Below are positions 5,266 to 27,063 of a stretch of 64,000 bases of DNA, piece after piece. The position numbers and the translations under genes are program-made. Origin of the DNA: an uncultured Alphaproteobacteria bacterium (GTDB lineage: Bacteria; Pseudomonadota; Alphaproteobacteria; HIMB59; GCA-002718135); the NCBI GenBank assembly GCA_902593125.1, contig CACJGU010000003.1, positions 46,905 to 110,904 of the forward strand, given 5' to 3'. Below the pieces are notes generated by a model. The model had not been told where the DNA came from. It made no database searches and saw only the letters and a list, made by a program, of their open reading frames with translations. Numbering within the stretch: position 1 is the first letter of the stretch; each line of letters opens with the position of its first letter.

Positions 5266-5288
5266 TCTGTTAATTTTTATTTATTATT

Positions 5289-10242: not shown

Positions 10243-10289
10243 TATTTAATAAATAATATTAAAAATGCGAGTTTCAATACATTTTGTAA

Positions 10290-10312: not shown

Positions 10313-10318
10313 AAATAA

Positions 10319-10681
10319 TTATCTACTATAAAAATAAAAGCCTATTGCAAATAATGCCGTTAAAATAATATTTACATAAGCAGTGGCTCCTGCCACAGCT
10401 CCAGTTATAATATGAAATAAAATAATTAATGTGAATAATAACCCCCCAATAGCAAATAGCATTCCAATTGACTTTAGATTTTCAGCAGCAATATCTGGAA
10501 ATCTCCAACTCCAAATGCCATTAACTATAAAAACCACTCCAAGAAATTGCCCAATGGTAATTAAATCGGCAGTCGGTGTCCAACCAGCTTGTTGAATAAA
10601 AACCGAAGTTAAGAACAAGCTTCCAAATCCATTTATTAAAAGAATTATAGCTTGTGCTTTAAAAATAGTTCTAAGATTCAT
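10319..10681 (-). CDS. hypothetical membrane protein (4 predicted TM segments)
   Basis: 120 aa, hydrophobic throughout. No family was recognised. Confidence 0.6.
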   Translation of the reverse strand: MNLRTIFKAQAIILLINGFGSLFLTSVFIQQAGWTPTADLITIGQFLGVVFIVNGIWSWRFPDIAAENLKSIGMLFAIGGLLFTLIILFHIITGAVAGATAYVNIILTALFAIGFYFYSR

Positions 10682-10747
10682 AAATTTCTCCTAAAAACTA
10701 TTTATTTAATTATTTAGATTCTATCAAAAAACTTATTGAAGTAAAAA

Positions 10748-11344
10748 CTATTGAGAATTTATCCACTTTATACAATCTTCAAGTCTATCATCACCCCAAA
10801 AGACCTCACCTTTGTAAATAAATGTTGGGCTCCCAAATACCCCTGCTTTGTATGCATTTTCTGTATTTTGCAAATATTGATCTTTTATATTTGCTGAATT
10901 TGAATTTTTTATAACTTCATCTTTATTTAAATTAAGTTCATTAAGTACTTCTGAGAGATTGGGTTCAATTGCTGGCTCTTTACCCTCTTGAAACCACTTT
11001 TTATAAGTATGTGTTACATATTTAACACCCCAACCCTCTTTCATTCCTAAAATTGCTAGTCGATTAGCTAAATCAAATTCTTTTAATGGATAAGGTGCTG
11101 GTACGTTAGCAAAAAATCCATAAAACTTCGCTCTTCTTTCAATATCCCTCCACATATAATCTGACTTAATTTTCTTAGATGGTGGAGTAAAAGGAATATT
11201 ATCCATATCCATCATAATTTTTCTGACACTAAATGGTTTCCAATTGAATTTAATATTTACTCTCTGAGAAACTTCATTAAGTCTATTAACTGCTAGATAG
11301 GTATAAGTGCTTCCTATTGAAAACCAAAAATCAATTTCTTTCAT
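10748..11344 (-). CDS. DsbA-like thioredoxin-fold protein (2-hydroxychromene-2-carboxylate isomerase family)
   Basis: The motifs IDFWFSIGSTYTYL and GVFGSPTFIYKGEVFWGDDRLED match the HCCA isomerase/DsbA-like family. I chose the start at the internal Met (MKEIDFW); the ORF track extends to 11377. Confidence 0.78.
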   Translation of the reverse strand: MKEIDFWFSIGSTYTYLAVNRLNEVSQRVNIKFNWKPFSVRKIMMDMDNIPFTPPSKKIKSDYMWRDIERRAKFYGFFANVPAPYPLKEFDLANRLAILGMKEGWGVKYVTHTYKKWFQEGKEPAIEPNLSEVLNELNLNKDEVIKNSNSANIKDQYLQNTENAYKAGVFGSPTFIYKGEVFWGDDRLEDCIKWINSQ

Positions 11345-11477
11345 AATAAAAATTATACTATTATTTATTAATAACAAATAAAAGAATTATTATTAATATT
11401 TGCGTACTTTATATACCTCTTGCACATAATTTAAATTTAGATAGTGAATATAAATAAATTTTAAAATGGAGTAATGA

Positions 11478-12803
11478 ATGAAAAAAATAATTAACTCTCT
11501 ATTTGTTTTATCTTTTTTCTTTTCTTCATCTGCGGTGTTTGCAAAAACGCAAATTTCATGGTGGATGGAAGCGAGAGCTGAGAGAGATCCAATAGTTATG
11601 GAAAAACTTGTTAATGCTTATAATAGTTCTCAAGATGAAATTGAACTGGTTATAGAATTTACAGCACAAGAAGTTTTAGGTGAAAAGTTAAGAACAGCAC
11701 TCATATCTGGAGGTGGTCCTGATATAGTTCGAGCAGCTGGACCCTCTTTCATTAAAGAATATCAAATGGCTGGTATGCTTGAAAACTTAGACGCATATGC
11801 TGAGCAATATGGATGGAATAATAAGATTGTTCCATGGGCATACAATTCTGGTGTTTTTGATGGAAGCTTATATGCATTACCATTAACTTACGAGTCAATG
11901 ATTATGCTATATAATAAAACTTTATTTGCTGAAAATGGATGGGGTGTTCCAACAACTTTAGAAGAATTAGAAGACGTTGCATCAAAAGCTAAGGCAATGG
12001 ATATGAATGTATATTCATATGGTTCGACTGGTTGGCAACCAACACACGAACATTTAGTTGGCATCTACTTAAACAATTATGCTGGTCCAGAAAATGTTTA
12101 CAAAGCTCTTATTGGTGAAAAAGAATGGACTGATCCAGTATTTGTTGAGGCAATTGAATTATTGAGAAAACATATGGTTGATGAAGGATACTGGTCAGGC
12201 AGTCTAGAAAACTATTACGCAATAGATTGGGATCAATTTCATGATGCATTTAGTGCAAGAAATGCTGCTATGATGACAATTGGAACATGGACATTTCAAA
12301 GAACTGAAATGAATTTTTCTAGTATAGATGATGACTGGGGTTGGGCTCCATTACCATCTTTATCTTCTAATTCACCAGATCAGAACTTTATGTTAGCAAT
12401 TGGTACTTCAATTGGATTAAATCCAAATAGCAAAAATAAAGATGCTGCTGCAAGTATGTTAAATTGGCTTTTTAGTAATAAAGATGTTGTAATTAATTTA
12501 TCAAATGCTCTTGAGTTTGCTGAATTTAACTTACCACTTTATTATGAAGACTCAGATTTTCCTGCAGATGTAAATCCAAAGATAAAAGATTTTTTATCAA
12601 CTTTTGGAAAAGTAACTGGTGAGGGAAATTATGGATACTGCACATGGGCATTTTGGCCTGCAGATCCAGGAGTTCACATATGGAAAGACATGGAAGTAGT
12701 GTGGGCTGGTGATATTTCAGTTGAAGATTATATGGCTGATCATCAAAAACTTTGGGATAAGGCCAGAGATAAAGGAACTACTTTATCTATTCCAAACAGA
12801 TAA
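11478..12803 (+). CDS. CUT1-type ABC transporter periplasmic sugar-binding protein
   Basis: 441 aa with signal peptide MKKIINSLFVLSFFFSSSAVFA. The composition is family-1 SBP-like and two MalFG-type permease genes follow. Confidence 0.88.
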   Translation: MKKIINSLFVLSFFFSSSAVFAKTQISWWMEARAERDPIVMEKLVNAYNSSQDEIELVIEFTAQEVLGEKLRTALISGGGPDIVRAAGPSFIKEYQMAGMLENLDAYAEQYGWNNKIVPWAYNSGVFDGSLYALPLTYESMIMLYNKTLFAENGWGVPTTLEELEDVASKAKAMDMNVYSYGSTGWQPTHEHLVGIYLNNYAGPENVYKALIGEKEWTDPVFVEAIELLRKHMVDEGYWSGSLENYYAIDWDQFHDAFSARNAAMMTIGTWTFQRTEMNFSSIDDDWGWAPLPSLSSNSPDQNFMLAIGTSIGLNPNSKNKDAAASMLNWLFSNKDVVINLSNALEFAEFNLPLYYEDSDFPADVNPKIKDFLSTFGKVTGEGNYGYCTWAFWPADPGVHIWKDMEVVWAGDISVEDYMADHQKLWDKARDKGTTLSIPNR

Positions 12804-12818
12804 TTTAAATATTATATG

Positions 12819-12850
12819 ACGAAGCTCTTTTAATGAGCTTCGTTTTATTA
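12819..12850 (+). terminator. intra-operon hairpin / attenuating terminator after the SBP gene
   Basis: ACGAAGCTC pairs with GAGCTTCGT around loop TTTTAAT, followed by TTTTATT. Confidence 0.65.
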
Positions 12851-13725
12851 TGAAAATATTTTTAAATAAATCTTTAATTGCTTGGTACTTTATACTTCCG
12901 GTACTTTTAATCCATTTATTTGTAATAGCAATCCCTTCGATTTCAAGTCTTGCACTATCTTTAACAGATTTCAGAGGTATGGGAAAACTCAATTATATTG
13001 GCTTTGAAAACTTTAATGAATTATTTGATGATAGATATTTTGTAAAAGCAGTTTACCACAATATAATTTGGACAATCGCATTTCTAACAATTCCAGTATT
13101 TGTAGCTCTAGTTTGTGCTTACCTGCTAACAGGTATAAAAAGAGGTCAATTATTTTTTAGATTAGCTTTTTTCTTTCCATATATGTTGGCAAGTGTGGTT
13201 AATTGTCAAATATGGAAATATTTATTCAGTCCTATTTATGGAATTGGAACTGTTTTAAGTAGTTTTGGTTTAGATTTACTTACAACTTCTCCATTTACTA
13301 CAAAAGAATATTCCTTATTCGCTGTAGCTTTTGTAGATGGATGGCATTTCTGGGGATTTCTTGTCGTAATTTATTTAACAGGAATGTATCAGGTAGACTC
13401 TTCACTTTATGAAGCTGCTGATATTGAGGGTGCCTCTAAATATCAAAAATTTAGATATATCACATTGCCTATGATTAGACCTGTTCTTGTATTCACGATA
13501 ATGATTATAACAATTTGGTCTATTCCAGTTTTTGACTATGTTTTCATTTTGACTAAGGGAGGTCCTGCATACAGTTCAGAAGTTATTGGAACATATATGT
13601 ATTCACAAGCATTTGAACGATTTAATGTAGGATACTCCTCGGCGATAGGGACGATGATGTTTTTCTATGTATTAATCATTGTTGGTTTATTCGGTGTTTT
13701 AAGAAGATTGGGATGGGAAGTTTAA
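12850..13725 (+). CDS. ABC sugar permease (MalF/UgpA-like)
   Basis: 291 aa, multi-TM, with EAA loop LYEAADIEGASKYQKFRYITLPMIRP. Confidence 0.9.
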   Translation: MKIFLNKSLIAWYFILPVLLIHLFVIAIPSISSLALSLTDFRGMGKLNYIGFENFNELFDDRYFVKAVYHNIIWTIAFLTIPVFVALVCAYLLTGIKRGQLFFRLAFFFPYMLASVVNCQIWKYLFSPIYGIGTVLSSFGLDLLTTSPFTTKEYSLFAVAFVDGWHFWGFLVVIYLTGMYQVDSSLYEAADIEGASKYQKFRYITLPMIRPVLVFTIMIITIWSIPVFDYVFILTKGGPAYSSEVIGTYMYSQAFERFNVGYSSAIGTMMFFYVLIIVGLFGVLRRLGWEV

Positions 13726-13726
13726 T

Positions 13727-14563
13727 ATGGAAGTAGCTTCATTTAGAAAAAAAGAATTAATTTCAAATTATATTATTCTTGGAATATTTGCTATTGTTTC
13801 ATTAGCTCCAATATTGGTTTTAATTTTTAATGCTTTTAAACCAGCGGTAGAATTTGGAACTAATCCAATAGGGCTACCTAATAACATAACATTCCAAAAT
13901 TTTCCAGATGCATGGGTTCAAGGTGAATATTCAAAGATATTTTTTAACTCTTTTAAGCTTGTTTTTGGAACTTTAATCTTATGTATTTCAGTTTCTAGCT
14001 TAGCAGGTTTTAGTCTTGCAAAATTAAATCCAAAAGGAGCTAATTTAGTCGCAATTTATCTTCTAGTTGGTATTAGCATACCTGCGCAAATGTTTCTTTT
14101 ACCATTATTTTTATTATGGAAAAACCTTGGTCTTTTAAATACCCATATTGGATTAATTATTATTTACAGTGCTCTTAATGCTCCATTCGCAACTTTTTTA
14201 ATTAGATCATATATGATTAGATTACCTGATGAATTATTTGATGCTGCTAAAATAGATGGAGCAAATATTTTTCAACAGTTTTTCAGAGTCGCTATACCTC
14301 TTTCATGGCCAGTCTTACTAACTTCAGCATTAGTTGTTGGTTTAGCGGTATGGAATGAATTTTTATTTGCCTTAACATTTGTTCAAGATGAAAACTTAAA
14401 ACCAATATCAACAATTTTATTTGCTTTCTCTTGGAGATTTATAAATAACCAAGCATTAGTTAGTGCTGCATCAATAATGATGGTGGCACCTGTTGTAATA
14501 TTATTTTTACTATTTCAAAAAAGATTTATTTCTGGTTTAACAAGTGGAGGCTTAAAGGGTTAA
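13727..14563 (+). CDS. ABC sugar permease (MalG/UgpE-like)
   Basis: 278 aa with EAA loop LFDAAKIDGANIFQQFFRVAIPLSWP. The gap to the upstream gene is 1 nt. Confidence 0.9.
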   Translation: MEVASFRKKELISNYIILGIFAIVSLAPILVLIFNAFKPAVEFGTNPIGLPNNITFQNFPDAWVQGEYSKIFFNSFKLVFGTLILCISVSSLAGFSLAKLNPKGANLVAIYLLVGISIPAQMFLLPLFLLWKNLGLLNTHIGLIIIYSALNAPFATFLIRSYMIRLPDELFDAAKIDGANIFQQFFRVAIPLSWPVLLTSALVVGLAVWNEFLFALTFVQDENLKPISTILFAFSWRFINNQALVSAASIMMVAPVVILFLLFQKRFISGLTSGGLKG

Positions 14564-14564
14564 T

Positions 14565-16730
14565 ATGAGTTATAATTTAGATAAAAGCTATGAAGAAAAA
14601 GTTTATGCAGGTGTTCTAGGAAAGATAATAGGTGTATTTCTCGGTAGACCATTTGAAAATTGGTCTTACGAGAGAATAATGAAAGAGCTTGGTCCAATTA
14701 ACTATTATGTTAATGATAAATTAGACTTTCCTCTTCCCATATCTGATGATGACATAACTGGAACTTTTACATTCTTGAGAGCTTTTAAAGATTTTAATTA
14801 TGATAAAAATATTACAGCTAAAGAAATTGGTCAAACATGGTTAAATAATTTAATAGAAGATAAAACAATATTATGGTGGGGTGGCAAAGGTCATTCAGCA
14901 GAAGACACTGCATATCAGAATTTAAAACAAGGTATTCACGCGCCTAAAAGTGGTTCAATTGAATTGAATGGCAAAGTGATAGCTGAGCAAATAGGAGCAC
15001 AAATATTTATTGATGGTTGGGCTTTAGTGACACCTGGTGATCCTGAAAAAGCAATGTACTATGCTAAAGAAGCAGCAAGTGTTAGTCATGATGGTGAAGC
15101 TATAATCGGTGCTCAAGTTGTTGCAGCTATTGAGTCAATGGCATTTCTTGAGAATGATTTATTTAAATTAGTTAATGAGGCTAAAAATTTAATTCCTAAA
15201 GACTCAATTATATTTAAATTAATATCAGATTTACAAGAATGGAGATCAGGTAATTTTGGTTGGGAACAAGCTAGAGAAAAGATTGTTGAGAATTATGGCT
15301 ATGATAAATATTTAGGTAACTGTCATATGGTGCCTAATCATGCATTAATTATAATGGCTCTGTTGTACGGTGATGATGACTTTCAAAAAACTATGATGAT
15401 TGTTAATACTGCTGGGTGGGATACTGACTGTAATTCAGGAAATGTTGGATGCATTTTGGGAATTAAGAATGGTCTCGAAGGATTAAAGAAAGGGCCTGAT
15501 TATTTATCTCCAATTAATGATGTTTTATACTGCCCTACTGCAATTGGTGGTGAAACATTAACAGATGCAATAAGTGAGTCATATAAAATTATAAATACTG
15601 CTAGACAAATCAATAACCTTGATTTTACTAAACCAAAAGAGAATGCAAAATATCACTTTGGTTTAAAAGAATCTACACAGGGCTGGAAGGTAAATTTAAA
15701 AAATAAAAATATTTGTGAAACTAATATCAGTAATATCAATTATGACTCTTCTATTGGCAACAGAGCGCTTGAAATAACATTCAAAGCACTTTCAAGTGAT
15801 AAAATGTGTGAAGTACTTGTTGACACTTTTTATCCAGATGTAATTTTAGATTTAAAAGGAAGAAAAAGAGAAGATTTTTTTCATTATGATTATATTTCTT
15901 GTCCCATCGTCTATCCTGGGCAAAATATAAAAGCTCAAATAAAAAATACTTCTTCGAAATTATTACAAATAAAACTTTTTATTAAATATTGGGGAGCAAA
16001 TGATGAATTAACAAAAATTTCATCAGATATTTTTGAGTTTAATGATAATGAAGAGAAAATTTTGGATTGGAAAATACCGTCGACTGATAATGATCCAATT
16101 GGGCAAGTCGGGATAAATGTGATATCAAAAGAAAAATGTGATGGCTCTATTGTTTTAAACTACTTAACTATTTACGGAGAGGCGAGTCAAACTTTTAGAA
16201 GACCCAAACATATTGAAGAGTATAAAAGAGGTGTCGACTCAAAAGATGGGTACTATGGGCAAATTTGGCGTAACGCATGGGTTCAAGCTTTAGATAAATG
16301 GGAGGAAAGAGGTAAAAATTTTAGAATTTGCCAAAATATTGGTAGAGGAATAATTTATATTGGAACTGAAGTTTGGCAAAATTATTCAATCTCCTCAAAA
16401 ATTACTCTTCAATCAGTTAGATCAGGTGGACTTGTTGCAAGAGTTCAAGGTGTAAAAAGATATTATACATTTGAATTAAACAGTGACAATACTCTTTGTA
16501 TTGGAAAAATGTTTTACGATTACAAAATATTAAAGAAAGTAGAATTTAAAGTACTATTTTTTAAAGAATATTCTTTAAAAATGGAGATTAAAAATAATAA
16601 AATTAAAGGCTATGTAGATGATAGGTTAATTTTAGAAATTGAAGATAATGACAACTTTATAAAAAATGGTGGGTCAGGTTTAACCGTGTCCGATGGTACT
16701 TTAGTATCTGAAGAAGTTAAAGTTAATTAA
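14565..16730 (+). CDS. ADP-ribosylglycohydrolase-family domain fused to a ~370-aa uncharacterised beta-rich C-terminal region
   Basis: 721 aa. Residues ~1-340 carry ARH hallmarks (GVLGKIIGVFLGRPFE, SDDDITGT, GWDTDCNSGNVGCILG). The last ~170 aa resemble a concanavalin/LamG-type jelly roll (GGLVARVQGVKRYYTFEL, GYVDDRLILEIED, GGSGLTV). The gap to the permease gene is 1 nt. Confidence 0.85.
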   Translation: MSYNLDKSYEEKVYAGVLGKIIGVFLGRPFENWSYERIMKELGPINYYVNDKLDFPLPISDDDITGTFTFLRAFKDFNYDKNITAKEIGQTWLNNLIEDKTILWWGGKGHSAEDTAYQNLKQGIHAPKSGSIELNGKVIAEQIGAQIFIDGWALVTPGDPEKAMYYAKEAASVSHDGEAIIGAQVVAAIESMAFLENDLFKLVNEAKNLIPKDSIIFKLISDLQEWRSGNFGWEQAREKIVENYGYDKYLGNCHMVPNHALIIMALLYGDDDFQKTMMIVNTAGWDTDCNSGNVGCILGIKNGLEGLKKGPDYLSPINDVLYCPTAIGGETLTDAISESYKIINTARQINNLDFTKPKENAKYHFGLKESTQGWKVNLKNKNICETNISNINYDSSIGNRALEITFKALSSDKMCEVLVDTFYPDVILDLKGRKREDFFHYDYISCPIVYPGQNIKAQIKNTSSKLLQIKLFIKYWGANDELTKISSDIFEFNDNEEKILDWKIPSTDNDPIGQVGINVISKEKCDGSIVLNYLTIYGEASQTFRRPKHIEEYKRGVDSKDGYYGQIWRNAWVQALDKWEERGKNFRICQNIGRGIIYIGTEVWQNYSISSKITLQSVRSGGLVARVQGVKRYYTFELNSDNTLCIGKMFYDYKILKKVEFKVLFFKEYSLKMEIKNNKIKGYVDDRLILEIEDNDNFIKNGGSGLTVSDGTLVSEEVKVN

Positions 16731-16744
16731 TATTAATAAACATT

Positions 16745-17905
16745 ATGGAAGCTAGAGTATATAATAAAGAAAGAAATGCATCTTTTATAAGTGCATTTCT
16801 TATGATGTTTATAATAAGTATATATTTTGTTCATATTCCTTGGAACATTGATAGATTAGATATCAGTGAGTCAGAATTAGGATTTGGTTTATTTGTTTTT
16901 GGAATTTCTAATTTTTTTTCTAATCAAATTAGTGGTAGAATTATTGTTCCTAAATTTGGGACTTCAAATACAGTAATATTGGGATTAGTCATTTTTTGTT
17001 TTTGTCCACTTTTATTAATCAGTGTTCCAAACTACAATTCCTTTGTGATATCATGGATCCCTTTTGGAATTGCTATTGGATGTATGGTTCCGACTTTAAA
17101 TACACAAATTTCAATTGTTGAAAAAAAAACTGATAAGATTATTCTACCAATATTTCAGGCTTCCTATAGTACTGGATCATTGTTTGGATCAATAGCGGCA
17201 GCTTACTTTATAAGTTATATTTCTGATCCAAGAATTACTTTCTTTTTTTTAGGTACAATTATATTTGTGTATGTTTTTATATTTAAAATTTTTGGTTTAA
17301 AAAGAGAATATGAACCTGAAAAAGAAATTGTAAAGTTCAAATTACCAAAAAAATTAATTCTTATATATGGTTTTATGATGATGATGAATTTTGCTACAAT
17401 AGGAATTATTCTTGATTGGACTCCTGTATGGCTAACAAGAGATCTATCAGCCCCATTATTTTTAGGAGGAATACTTTTGATTTTTTTCAGTATAGGAGAA
17501 ATAGTTGCACGTTTAATGGGTAGCCGATTATTAAATTCGTTGGGCACTTATATTGTTGGGGGTTATTTTAGTATTGCATCAGGTATAGTTTTATTTTTAT
17601 CTGTATTAACAATGAATTTGTATTTTATAATATTTGGCATGTTATTATTTGGATTTGGTACTGCAAATTTTATTGCAATTGTTATACGAGAAGCAATAAG
17701 AATTTCAGATGAATCAATCAATATAACTGTTTCAAATCTTATAACACTTGGTTTTTCAGGGTTTATATTTGGACCAGTAGCAGTTGGGTATTTAGCAGAA
17801 TATTTTGGACTTACTTTTAATATGTATTTACTTTCAATTATTTGGGGCGGAAACGGTATAGCTTTAATTTATCTCATGAATATTAATAAATCAAAGATTA
17901 ATTAA
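16745..17905 (+). CDS. MFS-type transporter
   Basis: 386 aa with about 12 hydrophobic segments. It is co-directional with the ARH-fusion gene and 14 nt downstream of it. Confidence 0.72.
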   Translation: MEARVYNKERNASFISAFLMMFIISIYFVHIPWNIDRLDISESELGFGLFVFGISNFFSNQISGRIIVPKFGTSNTVILGLVIFCFCPLLLISVPNYNSFVISWIPFGIAIGCMVPTLNTQISIVEKKTDKIILPIFQASYSTGSLFGSIAAAYFISYISDPRITFFFLGTIIFVYVFIFKIFGLKREYEPEKEIVKFKLPKKLILIYGFMMMMNFATIGIILDWTPVWLTRDLSAPLFLGGILLIFFSIGEIVARLMGSRLLNSLGTYIVGGYFSIASGIVLFLSVLTMNLYFIIFGMLLFGFGTANFIAIVIREAIRISDESINITVSNLITLGFSGFIFGPVAVGYLAEYFGLTFNMYLLSIIWGGNGIALIYLMNINKSKIN

Positions 17906-18051
17906 TATTCATATTTATTACCAAAGTTCTTTTCTAAATATTGAATCATTTTATAAACTCATAAATAAACTTTGTGGTTCAAATTTGTAACATTACAAAA
18001 TCATTTTTTTTAACTTAATACAATGGCGATATTATGATAAAGAAGTATTAA

Positions 18052-18126
18052 GCCGCAGTAACTCAGGGGTAGAGTAACTCATTGGTAATGAGTAAGCCGG
18101 CAGTTCGAATCTGCCCTGTGGCACCA
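18052..18126 (+). tRNA. tRNA-Thr (anticodon GGU)
   Basis: Folds as GCCGCAG-TA-ACTC-AGGGGTA-GAGT-A-ACTCA-TTGGTAA-TGAGT-AAGCC-GGCAG-TTCGAAT-CTGCC-CTGTGGC-A-CCA. It is 75 nt with an encoded CCA, and the acceptor stem has one G:U pair. Confidence 0.9.
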
Positions 18127-18128
18127 TT
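18082..18128 (+). repeat. direct repeat copy 1 (3' half of tRNA-Thr, from the anticodon loop through CCA plus TT)
   Basis: 47 nt, matching 18599..18645 at 45/47 positions. Confidence 0.9.
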
Positions 18129-18132
18129 TTTA

Positions 18133-18519
18133 ATGAAATACATAATTATATTACTTATTTCCTTTATAAACATAGAAATAATGGCAAAACAAATATCAGA
18201 ATTAAGTTGGAAAAAGAGACTACTTATTGTTTCTTATGAAAAAAAAGAAGATCAAATATTTATCAAAACTAAAAAATTTATATCTGATAACAAATGCGAA
18301 ATTGAGGACAGAAACATAGAAATAATTTTTTATGAAAAATTTAAAAATATAAATTTTTCAAAACCAGAGTTTATTAATAATAATTATGGAATCTGGTTAA
18401 TTGGATATGATGGAATGATTAAAGATTCTAGTTTTGATGATAATATTTTTTTAAGATTATTTGCTTTAATAGACTCGATGCCGATGAGAAAAGATGAGAA
18501 GAATAACGATAAATGTTAA
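18133..18519 (+). CDS. secreted DUF4174-family protein
   Basis: 128 aa from the ATG at 18133 (the track's 18082 start lies inside the tRNA). It has a signal-like N-terminus MKYIIILLISFINIEIMA and DUF4174-like motifs WKKRLLIV, LIGYDGMIK and LFALIDSMPMRKDE. Confidence 0.65.
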   Translation: MKYIIILLISFINIEIMAKQISELSWKKRLLIVSYEKKEDQIFIKTKKFISDNKCEIEDRNIEIIFYEKFKNINFSKPEFINNNYGIWLIGYDGMIKDSSFDDNIFLRLFALIDSMPMRKDEKNNDKC

Positions 18520-18598
18520 CGATTTATTATTCAGTCACTTTTAGTTCATTTTTTTTATGAACCTTTACATTCCGCCAAAAATTTTCCTCGACAAGCCC

Positions 18599-18645
18599 TT
18601 GGTAATGAGTAAGCCGGCAGTTCGAGTCTGCCCTGCGGCACCATT
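18599..18645 (+). repeat. direct repeat copy 2 (orphan tRNA-Thr 3' half)
   Basis: Sequence TTGGTAATGAGTAAGCCGGCAGTTCGAGTCTGCCCTGCGGCACCATT. No tRNA 5' half lies upstream of it. Confidence 0.9.
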
Positions 18646-18661
18646 AAATTTGAAATTTTTT

Positions 18662-19069
18662 TTATTTTTCGGATCTACTAAATTTACGTAATTTAGGATC
18701 AAGTTTATAAAAATCTAGTTTACCTTTTGTAAATATATTTGAGTCTGTTTTTAGTTTTGTTGGATTTTCAAACATTCCTGCAGATATGCTTATAGATTTA
18801 CCTTTTTTGATTTTATAAAAAATACTTGCACCACATTTATTACAAAAACCTCTTTTTGCAAAGTTTGATGAGTTGTACCAACGTAAAGTACTTTTATTAA
18901 TGAAAATAATATTTTGTTCAAGACAGTTTGTATAGGCAGCATAATTACCGTGAGTTTTCATACATTGTTTGCAATGACAATTAATTACATAACGAAGTTT
19001 ACCGAAGATTTTAATTTTTACCCCGCCGCACAGACATTTGACAATTTGAGGTTGTTCTTTTTTTTTCAT
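18662..19069 (-). CDS. GFA-family (CENP-V / glutathione-dependent formaldehyde-activating-like) zinc protein
   Basis: 135 aa with Cys clusters CLCGG, CHCKQC and CNKCG typical of the GFA fold. Confidence 0.78.
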   Translation of the reverse strand: MKKKEQPQIVKCLCGGVKIKIFGKLRYVINCHCKQCMKTHGNYAAYTNCLEQNIIFINKSTLRWYNSSNFAKRGFCNKCGASIFYKIKKGKSISISAGMFENPTKLKTDSNIFTKGKLDFYKLDPKLRKFSRSEK

Positions 19070-19070
19070 A

Positions 19071-19487
19071 TTATAATTTAGAATAATTTCTTATAAATAA
19101 TATACCTGTTAAAAAAGTTATAGCAGAAAATATGTATGCATTACTTGTAATGACTTCAATATTTGTTTCACCGGGACTATCAGTAATAACATATCTCCAG
19201 AAATTTATAGAACAAACTAATTGAAATACAAAAATTGAAAAAAAAACAGGTAATTGGCGATCCAATCCTCTGAATAATATTGTAACCAAACCAATACTGA
19301 AAGTAACAAATATTATTCCAATAATCTCTGATAAACCGGCAACTGCATGATTAAAAAAACCTAAATTGTCTCTTGCAAATTCATCTGTAAAAACTAAAAG
19401 TTGAACAGCGAAATATAGAAAAAAAAAGATATTTATTATAATAATTAATATGTCTATTTTTTTATTCATTATTATGTATGATATCAT
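19071..19487 (-). CDS. hypothetical membrane protein (4 TM)
   Basis: 138 aa and hydrophobic, with a 1-nt gap to the GFA gene. The start could instead be the internal Met at 19469. Confidence 0.55.
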   Translation of the reverse strand: MISYIIMNKKIDILIIIINIFFFLYFAVQLLVFTDEFARDNLGFFNHAVAGLSEIIGIIFVTFSIGLVTILFRGLDRQLPVFFSIFVFQLVCSINFWRYVITDSPGETNIEVITSNAYIFSAITFLTGILFIRNYSKL

Positions 19488-19505
19488 CTATTAAACTTTC
19501 GTAAC

Positions 19506-20162
19506 ATGAAAATAACTTTATATTACTTTAAAATTCCATTTTGGAGAGCTGAAGTAACACGTTTATCTCTATTTATTGGTGACATTCCTTTCAGTGATCA
19601 TAGAATTGAAGGAGATGAATATGACGAATTTAAAAAAACAGGAAAATTACCTAATGGTAAAATTGCCCCATTTAAACAACTTCCAGTTTTAGAAGTTGAT
19701 GAAAAAATCTTTGCACAAACAGGTGCTATTGCAAGATACTGTGGTAAACTTTCTGGCTTATATCCTAAAGATGATGATTATAAATCAGCATTAATTGATC
19801 AAATTATTGAAGCAGCTCAAGATATAAATTTTCTGGTCACTTTGTCTGGGAGAGATAAAGACCCAGAAAAAAAGAAGGTAGCAAGAGACATACTAGCAAC
19901 TAGACACTTGCCAAAATGGTTCCAGTATTTGGAAAATCTGAATAAACAAAATGAGCAATCAATTTATTTTGTTGGAAAAGACTTAACTATAGCTGACTTA
20001 GCTATATGGAGATTGCTCGGTTGGCTAACATCTGGTTTATTAGATGGTGTGCCTACTAAAATTTTAGACATATATCCAAATTTAATTAAACTAAGAAAAG
20101 AAATATATAAAAATCCAAAGGTAATTAAATGGATGGATCAAGTTTACGGAAAAATAATCTAA
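19506..20162 (+). CDS. glutathione S-transferase family protein
   Basis: 218 aa. The N-terminal thioredoxin-like GST region (FKQLPVLEVDEKIFAQTGAIARY) is followed by an alpha-helical C-domain. Confidence 0.8.
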   Translation: MKITLYYFKIPFWRAEVTRLSLFIGDIPFSDHRIEGDEYDEFKKTGKLPNGKIAPFKQLPVLEVDEKIFAQTGAIARYCGKLSGLYPKDDDYKSALIDQIIEAAQDINFLVTLSGRDKDPEKKKVARDILATRHLPKWFQYLENLNKQNEQSIYFVGKDLTIADLAIWRLLGWLTSGLLDGVPTKILDIYPNLIKLRKEIYKNPKVIKWMDQVYGKII

Positions 20163-20166
20163 TTTC

Positions 20167-20904
20167 ATGACAGCATTAAGTGTAAATATAAATAAATTCG
20201 CCTTAGTCAGAAATGCCAGAGGAGCTAATATGCCTGATATAATTAATATTAGCAAAAAATGTCTGCAATATGGTGCAGATGGTATTACTGTTCATCCTAG
20301 ACCAGATGAGAGGCATGCTAAATTTTCAGATTTAGAACCTTTAAAAAACTTAATATCAAAATATAGGAATAAAGAATTCAATATCGAAGGATACCCATCT
20401 GATAACTTTATCAAAAAAGTAATTAATGTGAAACCTAATCAAGTGACACTAGTGCCAGATCCGCCCGGAGCTTTAACTTCATCTTTTGGCTGGGATTGTG
20501 AAAAAAATAAAACTTTTTTAACTGATGTTGTTCAAAAATTTCAGACTAACAACATAAGAGTTTCATTATTTATAAATCCATCAATTAAAACTTTAGAAAA
20601 TTTAGATAAGATTTCAACCAATAGAGTAGAGTTATACACTTATGATTATGCTCATAATTATTCAAAAAATAAATCAGAAGCTATTAAATCTTATATAAAA
20701 GTATCTTCATATTTAAAAAATAAATTTCCTCATATAGAATTAAATGCTGGACATGATTTAAATTTAGAAAATTTGGATTATTTTTTAAAATCAATTGATA
20801 ACATTAAAGAAGTATCAATAGGACACGCTTTAATATGTGATACATTTGAGTTTGGATTAGAAAATACAATAAAAAAATATCTAGAAATATCTTCTAGACT
20901 ATGA
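20167..20904 (+). CDS. pdxJ: pyridoxine 5'-phosphate synthase
   Basis: 245 aa with LSVNINKFALVRNARG and GITVHPRPDERH, both characteristic of PdxJ. Confidence 0.92.
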   Translation: MTALSVNINKFALVRNARGANMPDIINISKKCLQYGADGITVHPRPDERHAKFSDLEPLKNLISKYRNKEFNIEGYPSDNFIKKVINVKPNQVTLVPDPPGALTSSFGWDCEKNKTFLTDVVQKFQTNNIRVSLFINPSIKTLENLDKISTNRVELYTYDYAHNYSKNKSEAIKSYIKVSSYLKNKFPHIELNAGHDLNLENLDYFLKSIDNIKEVSIGHALICDTFEFGLENTIKKYLEISSRL

Positions 20905-21509
20905 CCTTCATATTTTGGTTACAGTTTGCTACTGTATGTATTGCTGGAGCAATGTCTCCTGGTCCGAGCTTAGCTTTAATCATTAGAAATAGTACAAAAT
21001 ATAACAGACTTGCTGGAGTTATGAGTGCAATGGGTCATGGACTAGGTATGGGAGTATATGCAATATTTGCTGTTACTGGACTATCTATTATCCTAACAAC
21101 AAACATTTATATTTTTAAATCAATACAGTTAGCCGGAATTGTACTACTTTTTATTTATGGTATTTTATTTATATTTCAAAAAAATGAAGAATTAAAAATC
21201 GAAAATAATCAAAAAAAATTTAATTCTTTTTTACAAGGATTTTCAATTTCTATTCTTAATCCAAAAATATTAATATGGTTTTCTGCTGTCTTCTCTCAAT
21301 TTGTTATAAGTGATTCAACTTTATTAATAAATTCTATACTTGTGCTAACAGCATCTATTATCGATTGTATTTGGTATATTTTAGTTGCTCTAATAGTAAC
21401 AAGCTATGGTTTAAAAGATTTTTTTCAAAAAAGAATAAATGCTATTCAAAAAATTTCTGGATCACTTCTAGTTATTATTTCAATTCTACTAGTAGTTGAT
21501 TTCTTCTAA
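20901..21509 (+). CDS. LysE/RhtB-family amino-acid exporter
   Basis: 202 aa with 6 TM segments and N-terminal motif AMSPGPSLALII. It has a 4-nt overlap with pdxJ. Confidence 0.8.
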   Translation: MTFIFWLQFATVCIAGAMSPGPSLALIIRNSTKYNRLAGVMSAMGHGLGMGVYAIFAVTGLSIILTTNIYIFKSIQLAGIVLLFIYGILFIFQKNEELKIENNQKKFNSFLQGFSISILNPKILIWFSAVFSQFVISDSTLLINSILVLTASIIDCIWYILVALIVTSYGLKDFFQKRINAIQKISGSLLVIISILLVVDFF

Positions 21510-22571
21510 TACTCTTAAAAAATTATTTCCCATTAGTTTTTCTATCTCTTCTTGATTATAACCCCTACTTTCTAATTTCTCTGCTATCTTTATATGATCT
21601 AAACAATCATTCCATCCTTTAGGCAAACAATCGAGTCCATCATAATCACTTCCCACCCCAACATAATCTATACCTATAAGTTTAATTATGTATTCCATGT
21701 GATCAATGAATAGGTCTAATTCTGGACATATACTTGATAATTTTTTTTGAAAAAAATGTTGTTTTGCAAGCCATTGAGAAGATCTATTAGAATGTTGTAT
21801 TTCAATTGATTTTATTTTTTCTTTATATTCATTTCTTGTCTTTGACTCTCTTTTTTTAAAGGTTGGATCAATAAAAAAGGGATAAGGATTAATGCCAATT
21901 AGTCCCTTTTTATTTTTTATAGCTATTATTTGATCATCATGTAAATTTCTAAAATGTGGACATATCTTGTAAACACTGGAGTGAGATGCAATAAATGGTT
22001 TTTGCGATATATTTTCTATATCCCAAAAACTTTTTTCACCGATATGAGAAACGTCAATTAATATTTTATTTTCTTGGCATATATTTACAACTTCTTTTCC
22101 AAAATCATTTAGTCCAATTGTTTTTAAATTTGTTTTGTTATATTTCTCATCATAATTTGATGATACCCAATCAAGAGAATGATTCCATGTAGGTCCAAAA
22201 TATAATAAACCTCTATTAATAAAGTGATATAAGTTGTCTAAGTTATTTTCCAATGCCTCTCCTCCCTCCATAGATATTGGAAGAAGTAGTTCATTCTTAT
22301 TAATCCCCTCTATTATATCTTTTATTGATCTAGGAATTTTAACATTTTCAATATTTGATAGTTTTTCAAGTTCATCAAACATTCTATTAGCTTTATTGAA
22401 AAAATTTGGATTTTTTGCTTTACTTGAAACCCAAACAATTAATATTTGTAAGTTAATACATGACTCTTTAAGTCGAGGTATATCAGTATGTCCATGCGAT
22501 GTTATCTTTGTAACATCCTCACCTTCCATAATTCTTTGCACAAGATCATTGTGCAAATCAGCAACAAACAT
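21489..22571 (-). CDS. membrane dipeptidase (peptidase family M19)
   Basis: 360 aa with an N-terminal DLHNDL motif, IDVSHIGEKSF and a GSDYDG region. Confidence 0.85.
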   Translation of the reverse strand: MFVADLHNDLVQRIMEGEDVTKITSHGHTDIPRLKESCINLQILIVWVSSKAKNPNFFNKANRMFDELEKLSNIENVKIPRSIKDIIEGINKNELLLPISMEGGEALENNLDNLYHFINRGLLYFGPTWNHSLDWVSSNYDEKYNKTNLKTIGLNDFGKEVVNICQENKILIDVSHIGEKSFWDIENISQKPFIASHSSVYKICPHFRNLHDDQIIAIKNKKGLIGINPYPFFIDPTFKKRESKTRNEYKEKIKSIEIQHSNRSSQWLAKQHFFQKKLSSICPELDLFIDHMEYIIKLIGIDYVGVGSDYDGLDCLPKGWNDCLDHIKIAEKLESRGYNQEEIEKLMGNNFLRVLEEINY

Positions 22572-22575
22572 TTAA

Positions 22576-23142
22576 TTAATCAATAATTTCCATTTTTATG
22601 ATCTTATCAGGATCTGTAGGTGGCTCACCCCTAGTTATATTGTCAACAAATTCCATTCCTTCCACAACTTGACCCCAAACACTGTATTGTCCATCTAAAA
22701 AAGAGCAGTCATTAAAACAAATAAAAAATTGGCTGTTAGCGCTATTGGGATTTTGTGCTCTTGCCATTGATACCGCTCCACGACCATGATTGATGTTTGA
22801 AAATTCTGCTTCTATATCTGGCATAGATGAACCTCCTGTTCCAGCTCTAGATAAATTAAATTTATCATTAGAAGAATTTCCAAATTCTACATCACCTGTT
22901 TGCGCCATAAAACCTTCAATTACCCTATGAAAAACAACTCCATCGTATTGTCCCTCACTTATTAATTTTTTAATTTGACCTACATGTTTTGGTGCTACGT
23001 CTGGTCTAGTTTCAATTACAACAACACCATCTTTTAATGTCATTTGAATCTTACCTCTTTTGTCATCTGCCATAGATTTACTCCCTAATAATATTATTAA
23101 TACAAATAGGTTTAAAAAAATTATTTTATTTAGTTTAATCAT
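22576..23142 (-). CDS. periplasmic peptidyl-prolyl cis-trans isomerase, cyclophilin type
   Basis: 188 aa with a signal peptide. It carries FHRVIEGFMAQTGD and SQFFICF motifs. Confidence 0.9.
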   Translation of the reverse strand: MIKLNKIIFLNLFVLIILLGSKSMADDKRGKIQMTLKDGVVVIETRPDVAPKHVGQIKKLISEGQYDGVVFHRVIEGFMAQTGDVEFGNSSNDKFNLSRAGTGGSSMPDIEAEFSNINHGRGAVSMARAQNPNSANSQFFICFNDCSFLDGQYSVWGQVVEGMEFVDNITRGEPPTDPDKIIKMEIID

Positions 23143-23187
23143 ATTTGTTTTCTTTACCTTATCTTAATTTGTTTTATATATACTTTA

Positions 23188-23652
23188 ATGCACGTCTTTG
23201 AAGAAAATATCAAGCAATTAGGTATAGAGATACCAGACATGCCAAATGCTCTCGCAAATTATGTACCTTACAAGTTATCAAATAGTATTGTTTATGTATC
23301 TGGTCAAGCACCAGTAATGAACGGTAAGCTTATTTATAAAGGAAAAGTTGGTAATGATATATCAATTGAAGATGGTATCAAAGCTGCTGAATTATGCTGT
23401 ATAAACATAATATCAGTTTTAAAAAAAAGCATTAATGGAGACTGGAATAAATTAGATAATTTTCTAAAACTAGGAGGCTTTGTAAACTGTAATAGTGATT
23501 TTGTTGATCAACCACAAATTATTAATGGAGCTTCAGACTTACTCGTTAAAGTTTTTGGTGAACAAGGAAAACACTCAAGGTTTGCAGTTGGTTCAAATTC
23601 TTTGCCTATGAATATTTCAGTTGAAATAGACGCTATAATAAAAATAAAATAA
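23188..23652 (+). CDS. RidA/YjgF/L-PSP family protein
   Basis: 154 aa. The size and the C-terminal region (RFAVGSNSLPMNISVEIDAI) are typical of the family. Confidence 0.75.
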   Translation: MHVFEENIKQLGIEIPDMPNALANYVPYKLSNSIVYVSGQAPVMNGKLIYKGKVGNDISIEDGIKAAELCCINIISVLKKSINGDWNKLDNFLKLGGFVNCNSDFVDQPQIINGASDLLVKVFGEQGKHSRFAVGSNSLPMNISVEIDAIIKIK

Positions 23653-23659
23653 TTATATT

Positions 23660-24793
23660 ATGAGTAAATTTTTTTTTTGCTCTTCTTTAAATTCAATTGA
23701 TAAACAGAGTTGGAATGATTGTGTAAATGATGACCATCCATTTCTTCAATATGAGTTTCTAAGTGCATTAGAAAGAAGTAATAGCGCAACGACTAAAACT
23801 GGCTGGCAACCATATCATTACATTGAAATGGATAATGATGATATAATTGCATTATGCCCTCTTTATATTAAGAGTCATTCATTTGGAGAATATATTTTTG
23901 ATCATTCTTGGGCAGATGCCTATCACAGGTATGGTTTAAATTATTATCCAAAGTTGCAATCTGCTATTCCATTTACACCAGTTACTGGAGATAGAATAAT
24001 CATCAATAATAAAGTAAAAAATAAAAAAGAAAAAGAAACAAAAATAATTAATAATATAATTGCTGAGGCAAAAAAAATTAACGTTTCTTCATTGCATTTC
24101 AATTTTATAAAAAATCCATCTCGATGGGAAAATAATAAGGATATAATGCTTAGATCTAACATTCAATTTCATTGGAAAAATAACGATTATAAAAATTTTG
24201 ATGATTTTCTTAAAAGCTTATCATCACGAAAAAGAAAGACTATTAAAAAAGAACGTCTATGCATAAGTAATAATAATTTAGAGGTTAAATTATTAAATGG
24301 TGATTTAATTAAAGAGGAACACATACAATTCTTTTATGATTGTTATTTGGACACAACTGGAAGAAAGTGGGGCTCTACCTATTTATCTAAAAACTTTTTT
24401 TACGACTTACTCTTAAATTTCAAGGATAAAATACTATTAATAATGGCTTTTCAGGAAAATATTAAAATAGCATCAGCAATTAATTTTTTAAGTAACTCTC
24501 ATTTATATGGAAGATTATGGGGAGCAAAGTATGAAATCCCATTTTTACATTTTGAATTATGTTATTATCAAGCAATAGATTATGCAATTGAAAACAATAT
24601 AAAAATTGTTGAAGCTGGTGCTCAAGGTGAACATAAATTACAAAGAGGATATGTACCAACAAAAACATGGAGTGCGCATTGGATTAAAGATAAAGAGTTT
24701 AGCAATGCTATTCAGAGTTTTCTTAATAAAGAAGGTCAATTAATTGAGAGTGAAAAAAATAAACTTGAAGTTTTATCTCCTTATAAAGGCTAG
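23660..24793 (+). CDS. FemAB-like / DUF482 GNAT-fold acyltransferase family protein
   Basis: 377 aa. The N-terminus (W..C...HPFLQYEFLSALE.S) and the C-terminal GAQGEHKLQRGY are typical of the PF04339-type family. Confidence 0.68.
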   Translation: MSKFFFCSSLNSIDKQSWNDCVNDDHPFLQYEFLSALERSNSATTKTGWQPYHYIEMDNDDIIALCPLYIKSHSFGEYIFDHSWADAYHRYGLNYYPKLQSAIPFTPVTGDRIIINNKVKNKKEKETKIINNIIAEAKKINVSSLHFNFIKNPSRWENNKDIMLRSNIQFHWKNNDYKNFDDFLKSLSSRKRKTIKKERLCISNNNLEVKLLNGDLIKEEHIQFFYDCYLDTTGRKWGSTYLSKNFFYDLLLNFKDKILLIMAFQENIKIASAINFLSNSHLYGRLWGAKYEIPFLHFELCYYQAIDYAIENNIKIVEAGAQGEHKLQRGYVPTKTWSAHWIKDKEFSNAIQSFLNKEGQLIESEKNKLEVLSPYKG

Positions 24794-27063
24794 GCTAATT
24801 CTTTTTTTTCTTCTGGTTTTTTTGAAAAGTTAAAAGCAATTTCTTTATTTTTAAATGATATTTCAACATGACCGCCTTTAGCTAACTTACCAAATATTAA
24901 TTCTTCAGCCATCGGTTTTTTTACTTTTTCTTGAATAACTCTACCTAGCTCTCTTGCTCCATAAACTTCATCATATCCCTCATCAGCTAGATATTCTTTA
25001 GCATCATTATCTATTGATAAAGAAACTCCTTTATCTTCTAATTGTGCTTCAATCTCAATTACAAATTTATCTACAATAGAAAGAACAATTTTTTTCGATA
25101 GATGGTTAAAATGAATAATTGAATCAATTCTATTTCTAAATTCTGGAGAAAAAAGTCTGTTTATTGCATCATTACTATCGTCACTTGATCTGACTGAATT
25201 GAATCCAATTCTTTTTTTCGATACATCAATAGCGCCAGCGTTCGTAGTCATAATAAGAATAACATTTCGAAAATCAACTGTTTTGCCATTATGATCAGTT
25301 AATTTACCATAATCCATAACCTGCAAGAGTATATTAAAAAGATCAAAGTGAGCTTTTTCAATTTCATCTAATAGCAGAACACAATGTGGATTTTGATCAA
25401 TACCATCGGTAAGCAAACCACCTTGATCAAAACCAACATACCCTGGTGGTGCCCCTATTAATCTGCTTACAGTATGGCGCTCCATATATTCGGACATGTC
25501 GAATCTTAATAGTTTGATCCCTAAAGTTTTACTAAGTTGTCTTGCTACCTCAGTTTTACCAACTCCTGTTGGTCCTGAAAATAAATACGAGCCAATTGGT
25601 TTGCCTTCTTCTCTTAAACCAGCTCTAGCAAGCTTAATTGAAGAAGCTAATTCTTGTATTGCCTTATCTTGCCCAAATACGAAATTTTTTAAATCTCTTT
25701 CTAAATTTTTAAGATTATCTTTATCACTTTGATTAATAGATTTTGTAGGAATTCTTGCCATAAGGGCAACAACTGATTCAATATCTTTGGAAAGTATAAT
25801 TTTTTTTCTTTTGGACTCTGGAAGTAAATATTGTGATGCACCAGCTTCATCAATAACATCAATTGCCTTATCAGGTAATTTTCTATCACCAATATACTTA
25901 TTTGATAAATCTACTGCACTAATAATTGCTTCAGGTGAATACTTTATTTGATGATGATCTTCATAATATGTTTTTAATCCTTCTAAAATTTTAATTGTTT
26001 CATCTTTTGAAGGTTCTTTAATATCAATTTTTTGAAACCTTCTAACTAAAGCTCTGTCTTTTTCAAAGTAATTTTTGAATTCTTTATAAGTTGTAGAACC
26101 TATGCATCTTAGGCTGCCATTACCTAATGAAGGCTTTAATAGATTACTTGCATCCATTGATCCGCCACTTGTTGCTCCAGCTCCTATAACAGTGTGTATT
26201 TCATCAATAAACAAAATTGCTTTGTCTTCTTTTTGCAAATCTTTTAGTACTGCCTTTAATCTCTCTTCAAAGTCTCCTCTATAACGAGTGCCTGCAAGTA
26301 GAGCTCCCATATCTAATGAATATATTGTTGCGTCTTCCATTATTTTAGGAACTGCTTTTTCAACTATTCTTTTGGCTAATCCCTCTGCTATTGCAGTCTT
26401 TCCCACGCCCGGATCTCCAACAAAAAGTGGGTTATTTTTTTGTCTTCTACACAAAATTTGTATAGTTCTGTCTAGCTCTGAACTTCTTCCAATTAATTTA
26501 TCGATTTTACCTTTTTTTGATTTGTCGTTTAAATTTATACAAAATTGATCAAGCGCTCTTTTAGTATTTTTAGACTGACCATTTTCATTTATGCCATCAT
26601 CTAAAATTTCCTCAGTTTCTAAACTTTCATTTGCTTTAGATATACCATGAGAAATATATTGAACAGCATCAAGTCTTGTCATGTTTTGCTGGTGAAGAAA
26701 GTACACAGCATGACTTTCTTTTTCAGAGAATAAAGCAACTATCATATTAGCCCCTGTTACATTTTCGCGGCCACTTGATTGAACATGAATTGCTGCACGC
26801 TGCAGCACTCTTTGAAATCCATTTGTTAACTTAGGCTCTCCAGTGAAATTTTCTTTTAAATTTTCTAAATCTTGAGAAATAAAATTATCTATATTTGTTT
26901 TTAATGTATTTGTATCAACAGCACATGCCCTTAGAACACTTAAGGCGTCTTGATCATCCAAGAGACAGAAAAGTAGATGTTCTAGTGTAACATACTCATG
27001 TTTTTTATTAGATGCTAGTTGATAAGCATCCCTTAATGTTTTTTCTAAATTTGGTGAAAGCAT
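24790..27063 (-). CDS. clpA: ATP-dependent Clp protease ATP-binding subunit ClpA
   Basis: 757 aa from [10 protein letters not shown], with two AAA+ modules (GDPGVGKTA, GPTGVGKTE). The start was chosen at the TAATG overlap with the clpS stop; the track's 27084 start adds 7 aa. Confidence 0.93.
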   Translation of the reverse strand: MLSPNLEKTLRDAYQLASNKKHEYVTLEHLLFCLLDDQDALSVLRACAVDTNTLKTNIDNFISQDLENLKENFTGEPKLTNGFQRVLQRAAIHVQSSGRENVTGANMIVALFSEKESHAVYFLHQQNMTRLDAVQYISHGISKANESLETEEILDDGINENGQSKNTKRALDQFCINLNDKSKKGKIDKLIGRSSELDRTIQILCRRQKNNPLFVGDPGVGKTAIAEGLAKRIVEKAVPKIMEDATIYSLDMGALLAGTRYRGDFEERLKAVLKDLQKEDKAILFIDEIHTVIGAGATSGGSMDASNLLKPSLGNGSLRCIGSTTYKEFKNYFEKDRALVRRFQKIDIKEPSKDETIKILEGLKTYYEDHHQIKYSPEAIISAVDLSNKYIGDRKLPDKAIDVIDEAGASQYLLPESKRKKIILSKDIESVVALMARIPTKSINQSDKDNLKNLERDLKNFVFGQDKAIQELASSIKLARAGLREEGKPIGSYLFSGPTGVGKTEVARQLSKTLGIKLLRFDMSEYMERHTVSRLIGAPPGYVGFDQGGLLTDGIDQNPHCVLLLDEIEKAHFDLFNILLQVMDYGKLTDHNGKTVDFRNVILIMTTNAGAIDVSKKRIGFNSVRSSDDSNDAINRLFSPEFRNRIDSIIHFNHLSKKIVLSIVDKFVIEIEAQLEDKGVSLSIDNDAKEYLADEGYDEVYGARELGRVIQEKVKKPMAEELIFGKLAKGGHVEISFKNKEIAFNFSKKPEEKKELA

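Follow-up and report, generated by a model that had tools for sequence, protein, structure and literature searches.

The 64-kb window analysed here (the whole stretch of contig CACJGU010000003.1 under study) contains an intact tRNA-Thr(GGU) gene that is followed by a 47-nt copy of its own 3' half, and the two copies enclose a single DUF4174 gene and about 80 nt of non-coding DNA. The distal copy is likely to be the far junction left when site-specific recombination inserted 517 bp into this tRNA gene in a bacterium of the SAR11 group (Pelagibacterales). The evidence lies in the junctions, the presence/absence polymorphism, the stacking at the same gene and the clustering of three independent breakpoints, all of which are directly observed. 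No bacterial group of the ocean is more abundant than SAR11, which is commonly portrayed as almost devoid of mobile elements. The locus provides a clean and small example of gene gain and loss in its flexible islands.

The intact gene was recognized by ARAGORN and by the Rfam tRNA model, against which it scores 67.1 bits (gathering score 29). A repeat search of positions 17000-20000 returned one long direct repeat only, 18082-18139 and 18599-18656, with an offset of 517 nt. The tRNA-derived parts of the two copies (Table 1) match at 45 of 47 positions (95.7% identity), in agreement with the initial annotation, which had reported a 47-nt repeat with two mismatches. The first difference is A at 18109 versus G at 18626, corresponding to T-loop position 59, and the second is T at 18119 versus C at 18636, corresponding to acceptor position 69. 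A 25-mer common to both copies has exactly two occurrences in the window, and 100 dinucleotide shuffles gave none. The distal copy starts in the anticodon loop, at the loop's first base, and has no 5' half; neither ARAGORN nor Rfam (E<=10) called it as a tRNA, so the earlier statement that it is not a gene stands. In addition, a second tRNA-Thr was not detected in the window, and no partial copies of its other tRNA (Phe, 10-85) were found.

Three contigs closely related to the window (L052, L053 and L054) were found by an exact look-up of the protein encoded by the GFA-family gene on the right of the repeat; exact look-ups with the left-flank genes of the window, and with the DUF4174 protein from three alternative starts, gave no matches, nor was a contig found for P0139, a database protein equal to the 143-aa DUF4174 product of the window. 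L054, a TARA scaffold, is an empty site with three mismatches to window positions 18599-19393 (795 nt, 99.6% identity). Two of these three mismatches are the positions 59 and 69 mentioned above, and the intact tRNA of L054 has A59 and T69. L053, a metagenome scaffold, has the arrangement of the window and is 99.7% identical to it over 18445-19432. The single-cell genome GCA_902635635.1 (L052, contig CACPOO010000006.1) is 99.86% identical over 18076-25069. Because L052 and L053 carry the same distal copy with both substitutions, the repeat structure is not an assembly artefact.

L052 keeps the DUF4174 gene and the distal half, and its identity to the window ends at 18076, that is, at tRNA position 26. 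Its proximal tRNA is therefore represented by the 3' part only, which lies behind at least 5.2 kb of other DNA (6994-12168, with the left end off the contig). This DNA encodes two N6/N4 DNA methyltransferases (411 and 549 aa), two proteins without a family match (243 and 248 aa) and a complete, AT-rich, foreign tRNA-Thr(GGU) of its own at 8947-9021 (Rfam, 59.7 bits), and the displaced host tRNA part carries a G71T change that breaks the C2:G71 pair. L052 thus contains a second, unrelated element that is stacked at the same tRNA and supplies a replacement for it. Searches of the element against PHROGs and Pfam matched the DNA methyltransferases only; no meaningful phage DNA or protein match was obtained, the best homologue of a methyltransferase is only 57% identical, and the tRNA of the element is absent from viral contigs. 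A kinship between the end of this element and the DUF4174 tail was considered and rejected: both have GACAA ahead of the tRNA part, but they align locally no better than shuffles do (p=0.63). The two are unrelated and are therefore separate events. Thus empty, single and stacked states occur in strains that are more than 99.6% identical on the right flank.

More distant loci were collected by exact 25-mer scans, which yielded 14 species-representative genomes and 21 metagenome contigs (n=35) with one intact tRNA-Thr(GGU) gene each, and these were re-oriented and aligned to the window. The related loci all belong to single-cell genomes of SAR11 (Pelagibacterales) or to marine metagenomes; the G+C content of the window is about 28%. 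Directly after the tRNA lies a DUF4174 gene in 18 loci, a GFA gene in ten (L005, L008, L009, L011, L013, L018, L023, L030, L031 and L035), which are empty with respect to the cassette, and a conserved membrane gene in three, while single loci show a SnoaL-like gene and then GFA (L024), a dusA-like gene (L029), a tail plus half without DUF4174 (L026) or the end of the contig (L034). In the ten empty loci the alignment is unbroken from the tRNA 3' half into the flank right of the window's distal copy, which is what a precise insertion predicts. What comes next in the 18 loci with DUF4174 is a beta-lactamase-like gene, a malate synthase G gene with or without an ATP-grasp gene, the conserved membrane gene or, in L033, the tail plus half. 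There are at least seven downstream configurations and several upstream ones. The att-type junctions proposed by the initial annotation are thus backed by empty sites, including the 99.6%-identical L054, and its view of the tRNA as an insertion hotspot agrees with the variable content on both sides and with the larger element in L052. The two copies and the DUF4174 gene do not form a conserved core synteny in the related loci.

A third event was recognized in the metagenome contig MDSZ01260822.1 (L034), which has a 100% copy of tRNA positions 1-39 (38 nt) located 4 kb upstream of the intact gene. The DNA in between (re-oriented positions 1234-5385) encodes a fused EcfT-EcfA-EcfA transporter of the energy-coupling factor type, a membrane protein and a 5-formyltetrahydrofolate cyclo-ligase-like protein, and the copy of the 5' half adjoins a pyridoxal phosphate (PLP)-dependent (PALP) gene. 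The matching empty site is L027, whose upstream flank is identical. L034 thus represents an independent insertion, with cargo at the opposite side of this tRNA and again without an integrase. The breakpoints fall at tRNA position 32 for the unit in the window, 26 for L052 and 39 for L034, all within 14 nt around the anticodon loop. If the 17-nt anticodon stem-loop is taken as the prior target, three random breaks in the 75-nt gene would all fall in it about 1% of the time. The anticodon stem-loop of tRNA-Thr(GGU) therefore seems to be a recurrent recombination target.

In the window, the distal copy is preceded by 65 nt that contain segA and segB (within 18534-18598). L026 and L033 likewise have this tail in front of a partial tRNA half, and it was found neither elsewhere in the window nor in the other loci. 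L026 has an intact tRNA, 15 nt and then tail plus half, with no DUF4174 gene. L033 has DUF4174, the tail, a strongly decayed half and then SnoaL-GFA-membrane-GST genes with 78-83% identity to the window. Among the loci with DUF4174, the distal half is retained, and DUF4174 is combined with GFA, only in the window lineage and L033. The half differs from an intact one at two of 45 positions in the window, at nine and by one indel in L026 and at 17 of 45 in L033; for 2 versus 17 mismatches the binomial p is 0.0007. By this contrast, the half in the window is either the product of a recent event or refreshed by recombination or gene conversion. A 17-mer of segB gave 16 matches in viral contigs, 15 of them with one unrelated flank and none tail-like, and these were dismissed as chance matches.

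The two substitutions of the distal copy need separate consideration, as the initial annotation took this copy, which would restore a G4:C69 pair, for the displaced original 3' end. That argument fails: T69 is present in all 35 intact tRNA-Thr(GGU) genes and in the near-identical empty site L054. Therefore, the G4:U69 wobble is the native state, and both transitions are private to the non-functional copy. The tRNA sequence is identical in 30 of the 35 related loci and the remaining five differ at position 59 only, so that this position is A in 30 intact genes, T in five and G in none. The C69 version, with either A or G at position 59, had no match among 241 million metagenome records, and the G59/C69 version was seen nowhere but in the partial copies that the window, L052 and L053 carry. 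A lineage whose own tRNA resembles the distal copy is unsupported, given the absence of the C69 version from the 35 intact genes and the metagenome scan. The two transitions either arose after the insertion or came with a donor allele that already had the arrangement; the latter origin would place a crossover with an L054-like flank to the right of 18636.

Taken together, the identity from the anticodon loop to the 3' end, the regenerated tRNA, the exact empty sites, the stacking and the replacement tRNA make up the signature of a tyrosine integrase. The inserted unit comprises a 3' half by which the tRNA gene stays whole, DUF4174 without a promoter and the non-coding tail of about 80 nt. The half-copies would originate from a tyrosine-type integrase of a phage or a larger island, which we infer to act in trans because none is encoded nearby. 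Once flanked by tRNA sequences, the cassette may have spread or been refreshed by ordinary homologous recombination. The window is in fact a mosaic: its DUF4174 gene is closest to that of L025 (95.6% at the DNA level), where malate synthase lies downstream, its major facilitator superfamily (MFS) gene is closest to that of L012, and its right flank is closest to loci without DUF4174 (L054, 99.6%; L031, 91.8%; L035, 91.0%; L008, 90.6%). This composition suggests that homologous recombination may also move the allele within the population. The three states and the pinned breakpoints point to site-specific recombination, with an enzyme that is encoded elsewhere, and to homologous spread thereafter. 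The locus also supplies a defined sequence that can be sought among the reads of marine long-read data sets.

Several observations weigh against an origin by site-specific recombination. In the textbook geometry of an anticodon-loop crossover, one expects the distal half to be the 3' end of the recipient itself. Here it differs at two positions from every intact gene, including that of the near-identical empty site, and G59/C69 require two later substitutions or a different history. Two of the three mismatches to L054 fall within 45 of the 795 nt, for which p is about 0.01. Meanwhile, the divergence of the DUF4174 genes in the 18 loci is broadly parallel to that of the flank, so in most lineages DUF4174 behaves as an inherited gene and not as a moving one, and 16 of these 18 loci have neither the distal half nor the tail. 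The earlier proposal that the DUF4174 unit is an inserted element thus holds as far as the insertion scar is concerned; the unit is not simply a recent mobile gene.

The lack of an integrase also weighs on this side. As the initial annotation had stated, the inserted unit contains none; no integrase gene was found by open reading frame (ORF) and Pfam analyses in window positions 550-27084, adjacent to the tRNA in those related loci of which the ORFs were examined, or in the 5.2 kb that can be seen of the L052 element, whose left end is off the contig. No mobile-element genes were found in the Pfam scans. The tRNA 3' half (the 25-mer of both copies), the T-arm with the acceptor end and the 5' half each had 0 exact matches in IMG/VR, and no cultured-phage record contained any of the three. 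Two candidate sources gained no support. A blastn search of 18052-18660 against 50,697 phage records for a phage attP gave only unrelated matches to tRNA-Asn of Bacillus phages, and a pelagiphage prophage remnant is not supported, as there are no phage-derived genes or sequence between the repeats and DUF4174 is a cellular family.

The most serious alternative dispenses with a site-specific recombinase. Donor DNA with the order tRNA-DUF4174 would have recombined into a strain with the order tRNA-GFA, one end by homology and the other by an illegitimate join within the tRNA, and the product would then have spread by homologous recombination in the island. Besides the failure to find an integrase anywhere searched, this course of events is favoured by the mosaic window, in which MFS and DUF4174 resemble one set of lineages and the right flank another, and by the near-identity to L054, which begins only past both distal substitutions and fits a crossover in the flank with a donor-borne half-copy. 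L033, moreover, shows that the arrangement is old. However, the 75-nt gene is broken by three unrelated insertions, all within 14 nt around the anticodon loop, the tRNA is regenerated at exact junctions, and the L052 element brings a replacement tRNA with the same anticodon, a known trait of tRNA-integrating phages. Recombination of this kind accounts well for the spread of the allele but not for the origin of the half-copy, and we regard it as rather unlikely to be the whole explanation.

Less probable still is that the tRNA-Thr(GGU) gene serves as an integron-like capture platform in SAR11. Promoterless mini-cassettes, in which a tRNA 3' half is joined to an ORF with a short tail, would then be inserted at the anticodon loop by an in-trans integrase from a phage or from an island such as the L052 element and be expressed by read-through from the tRNA promoter; the newest cassette would lie nearest to the tRNA, and circles of about 0.5 kb could excise. 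If true, this would be a working single-gene exchange system in an organism thought to lack mobile elements. An excised circle would read the tail (…CCTCGACAAGCCC), TTGGTAATGAG…CACCA and then TTTTTAATGAAATAC; in the chromosome, TTAAATTTG comes after tail plus half.

Two further explanations are very improbable. A simple local duplication of the tRNA 3' half in a conserved tRNA-DUF4174-GFA order, with no mobility, would agree with the position of DUF4174 directly after the tRNA in about half of the loci, but it is already contradicted by the 99.6%-identical empty site L054, as well as by the other empty sites, the variety of downstream and upstream configurations, the stacking in L052, the module of L026 without DUF4174 and the pairing of DUF4174 with GFA in the window lineage and L033 only. 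That the distal half is kept because it is functional in itself, for example in processing or stabilizing the 3' end of the DUF4174 transcript or by giving a small RNA, could be read from its better preservation in the window than in L026 and L033 and from the two substitutions, which leave the T-arm and acceptor sequence pairable, but shuffles fold as well as the region 18515-18690 does (z=0.09), neither a terminator-like site nor an Rfam family was found in the distal region, the copies of L026 and L033 are decaying, and 16 of 18 DUF4174 genes do without the half.

Recombination at tRNA genes by tyrosine integrases offers a close framework for the insertion into tRNA-Thr(GGU). Williams is said to have distinguished, in 2002, sublocation classes of tRNA-targeting elements with tyrosine integrases, including a class with crossover in the anticodon loop. 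The window shares with such elements the identity block that extends to the 3' end, the regenerated tRNA, the direct repeats and the stacking beside the tRNA. Among the hallmarks of an att scar, a tRNA-end direct repeat with a regenerated gene, precise empty sites and reuse of the site with stacking are all found here; no gene for an integrase or another recombinase was found in the element or next to it. Unlike elements of the anticodon-loop class, the unit in the window has neither an integrase nor an excisionase gene and measures 517 bp, with one promoterless gene. An integron gene cassette is similar in layout only, with a promoterless ORF and a 3' recombination site behind a resident promoter; in contrast to an integron, no IntI was found in window positions 550-27084.

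Within SAR11, the general phenomenon has already been published, as it has for Prochlorococcus in the form of tycheposons. Seven tRNA-linked islands were described in a Mediterranean SAR11 genomospecies, and partial tRNA repeats in them were read as cassette insertions (PMC11796062, Microbiome 2025). That paper reports no canonical mobile elements and a single integrase, which is tied to a different island. The window belongs to the same group of organisms and has the same partial tRNA repeat signature; by the description there it resembles such an island in having a tRNA-bounded variable region, a repeat of more than 90% identity (95.7%) and no canonical mobile element. Beyond the islands as presented there, and relative to the literature in general, the present case adds a three-state polymorphism, with near-identical strains that have empty, single and stacked sites, breakpoints that map to the anticodon stem-loop, a replacement tRNA borne by the stacked element and a corrected wobble argument. 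It refines existing knowledge rather than opening a new area.

Temperate pelagiphages (HTVC019P-type and HTVC010P-type) infect the same host clade, and their tyrosine integrases insert into SAR11 tRNA genes, with core sequences of 11-46 bp that lie within these genes (bioRxiv 10.1101/410191; PMC8477408). Some of them carry their own tRNA in replacement of the disrupted host gene (bioRxiv 10.1101/410191), as the L052 element likewise brings one. The targets given in the two main texts are tRNA-Cys, Leu, Arg, Asn and Met, and tRNA-Thr is not named there. Unlike the situation with pelagiphages, no phage genes are present at the window locus, and no phage record or viral contig was found with the tRNA-Thr(GGU) sequence. 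In the case of the tycheposons of Prochlorococcus, tRNA-adjacent islands contain stacked elements with nothing but partial copies of the tRNA between them, and decayed remnants that include partial tRNAs lie dispersed in the islands (Hackl et al., bioRxiv 10.1101/2020.12.28.424599). A streamlined marine bacterium, islands at the side of tRNA genes, stacking and partial tRNA copies are thus common to both systems. Tycheposons are defined by a tyrosine recombinase of their own and a replication module, and the preprint makes no mention of SAR11, whereas the unit in the window consists of DUF4174 and the tail of about 80 nt only, with no recombinase and no replication or packaging module seen.

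The DUF4174 gene itself most likely starts at ATG 18133, 6 nt past the CCA of the tRNA, which would give a signal-peptide-like N-terminus (MKYIIILLISF). The start sequence ATGAAATA is kept after the tRNA in all loci that bear DUF4174. A start at 18181 is probably not used. Gene callers place the start at ATG 18088 and the mechanical ORF list at TTG 18082; both positions are within the tRNA and are almost certainly wrong. There is no room for a promoter of its own, and the gene is probably transcribed by read-through from the candidate tRNA promoter at 18010-18038. Promoter-like sites are no more numerous in the window than in shuffles, and a similar TATGATATTAT motif precedes the tRNA in many relatives.

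Table 1. Features of the window at and around the tRNA-Thr(GGU) gene.
Feature	Position	Strand	Basis
DSBA-like gene, last conserved gene left of the island	10748..11377	-	Pfam DSBA 2e-31
Accessory block left of the tRNA: sugar ABC transporter, ADP-ribosylglycohydrolase (14565-16730), MFS transporter (16745-17905)	11478..17905	+	ORFs, Pfam
Promoter-like site TTAACT-17-TATGAT upstream of the tRNA, candidate only	18010..18038	+	Consensus scan
Intact tRNA-Thr(GGU), native G4:U69 wobble	18052..18126	+	ARAGORN; Rfam tRNA
Proximal repeat copy, anticodon loop to CCA plus TT	18082..18128	+	Repeat search, 25-mer count
DUF4174 gene, 128 aa, signal-peptide-like N-terminus	18133..18519	+	Pfam PF13778 2e-14
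Non-coding tail of the inserted unit; segA 18534-18563, segB 18574-18598	18520..18598	+	
Distal partial tRNA copy, putative attR-type junction, G59 and C69	18599..18645	+	Repeat search, colinearity with empty sites
GFA-family gene, first on the right, itself accessory	18662..19069	-	Pfam GFA 6e-17
Membrane protein gene, first conserved gene right of the island	19071..19487	-	

The content on both sides of the tRNA is variable, and the tRNA therefore sits in a small flexible genomic island, which is bounded roughly by the DSBA-like gene and the membrane protein gene (Table 1). On the right, GFA is missing where the tRNA or DUF4174 precedes the membrane gene, a beta-lactamase-like gene or malate synthase G. 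A homologue of the membrane gene is present in every configuration, among the loci that extend far enough, except in the distant L029, where the dusA-like gene leads straight to pdxJ. On the left, the sugar ABC transporter and ADP-ribosylglycohydrolase genes (11478-16730) are missing in L005, L011, L012, L023 and L035, in which the DSBA-like homologue is followed by MFS, and in L013 and L031 the DSBA-like homologue lies directly before the tRNA. A PLP-dependent gene (PALP family, ACC-deaminase-like) takes this place in other loci, as does a fatty-acid desaturase, an oxidoreductase or a cupredoxin-like gene, and some have nothing there between the DSBA-like gene and the tRNA. The MFS gene occurs as two deeply diverged alleles, that of the window being 83% identical to L012 and 67-70% to about 20 other loci. 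Some of the loci with the other allele resemble the window far more closely in their neighbouring genes, and the MFS allele may therefore have been replaced by recombination.

Two minor observations concern individual proteins. The 243-aa protein at the end of the L052 element (7209-7940), which has no Pfam or PHROG match, has homologues at 8550-9243 of L055 and 5571-6290 of L056, and belongs to a family that is common in marine metagenomes, with clusters of 74-237 member sequences. The regions around the homologues contain no tRNAs and are rich in DNA methylase, helicase, NERD and PD-(D/E)XK genes, resembling defence islands. In the case of DUF4174, the artefactual starts within the tRNA yield products of 143-145 aa beginning with MSKPAVRICPVAP; the database protein P0139 is the 143-aa product of the window, and P0139 and its relatives bear the artefactual N-terminus.

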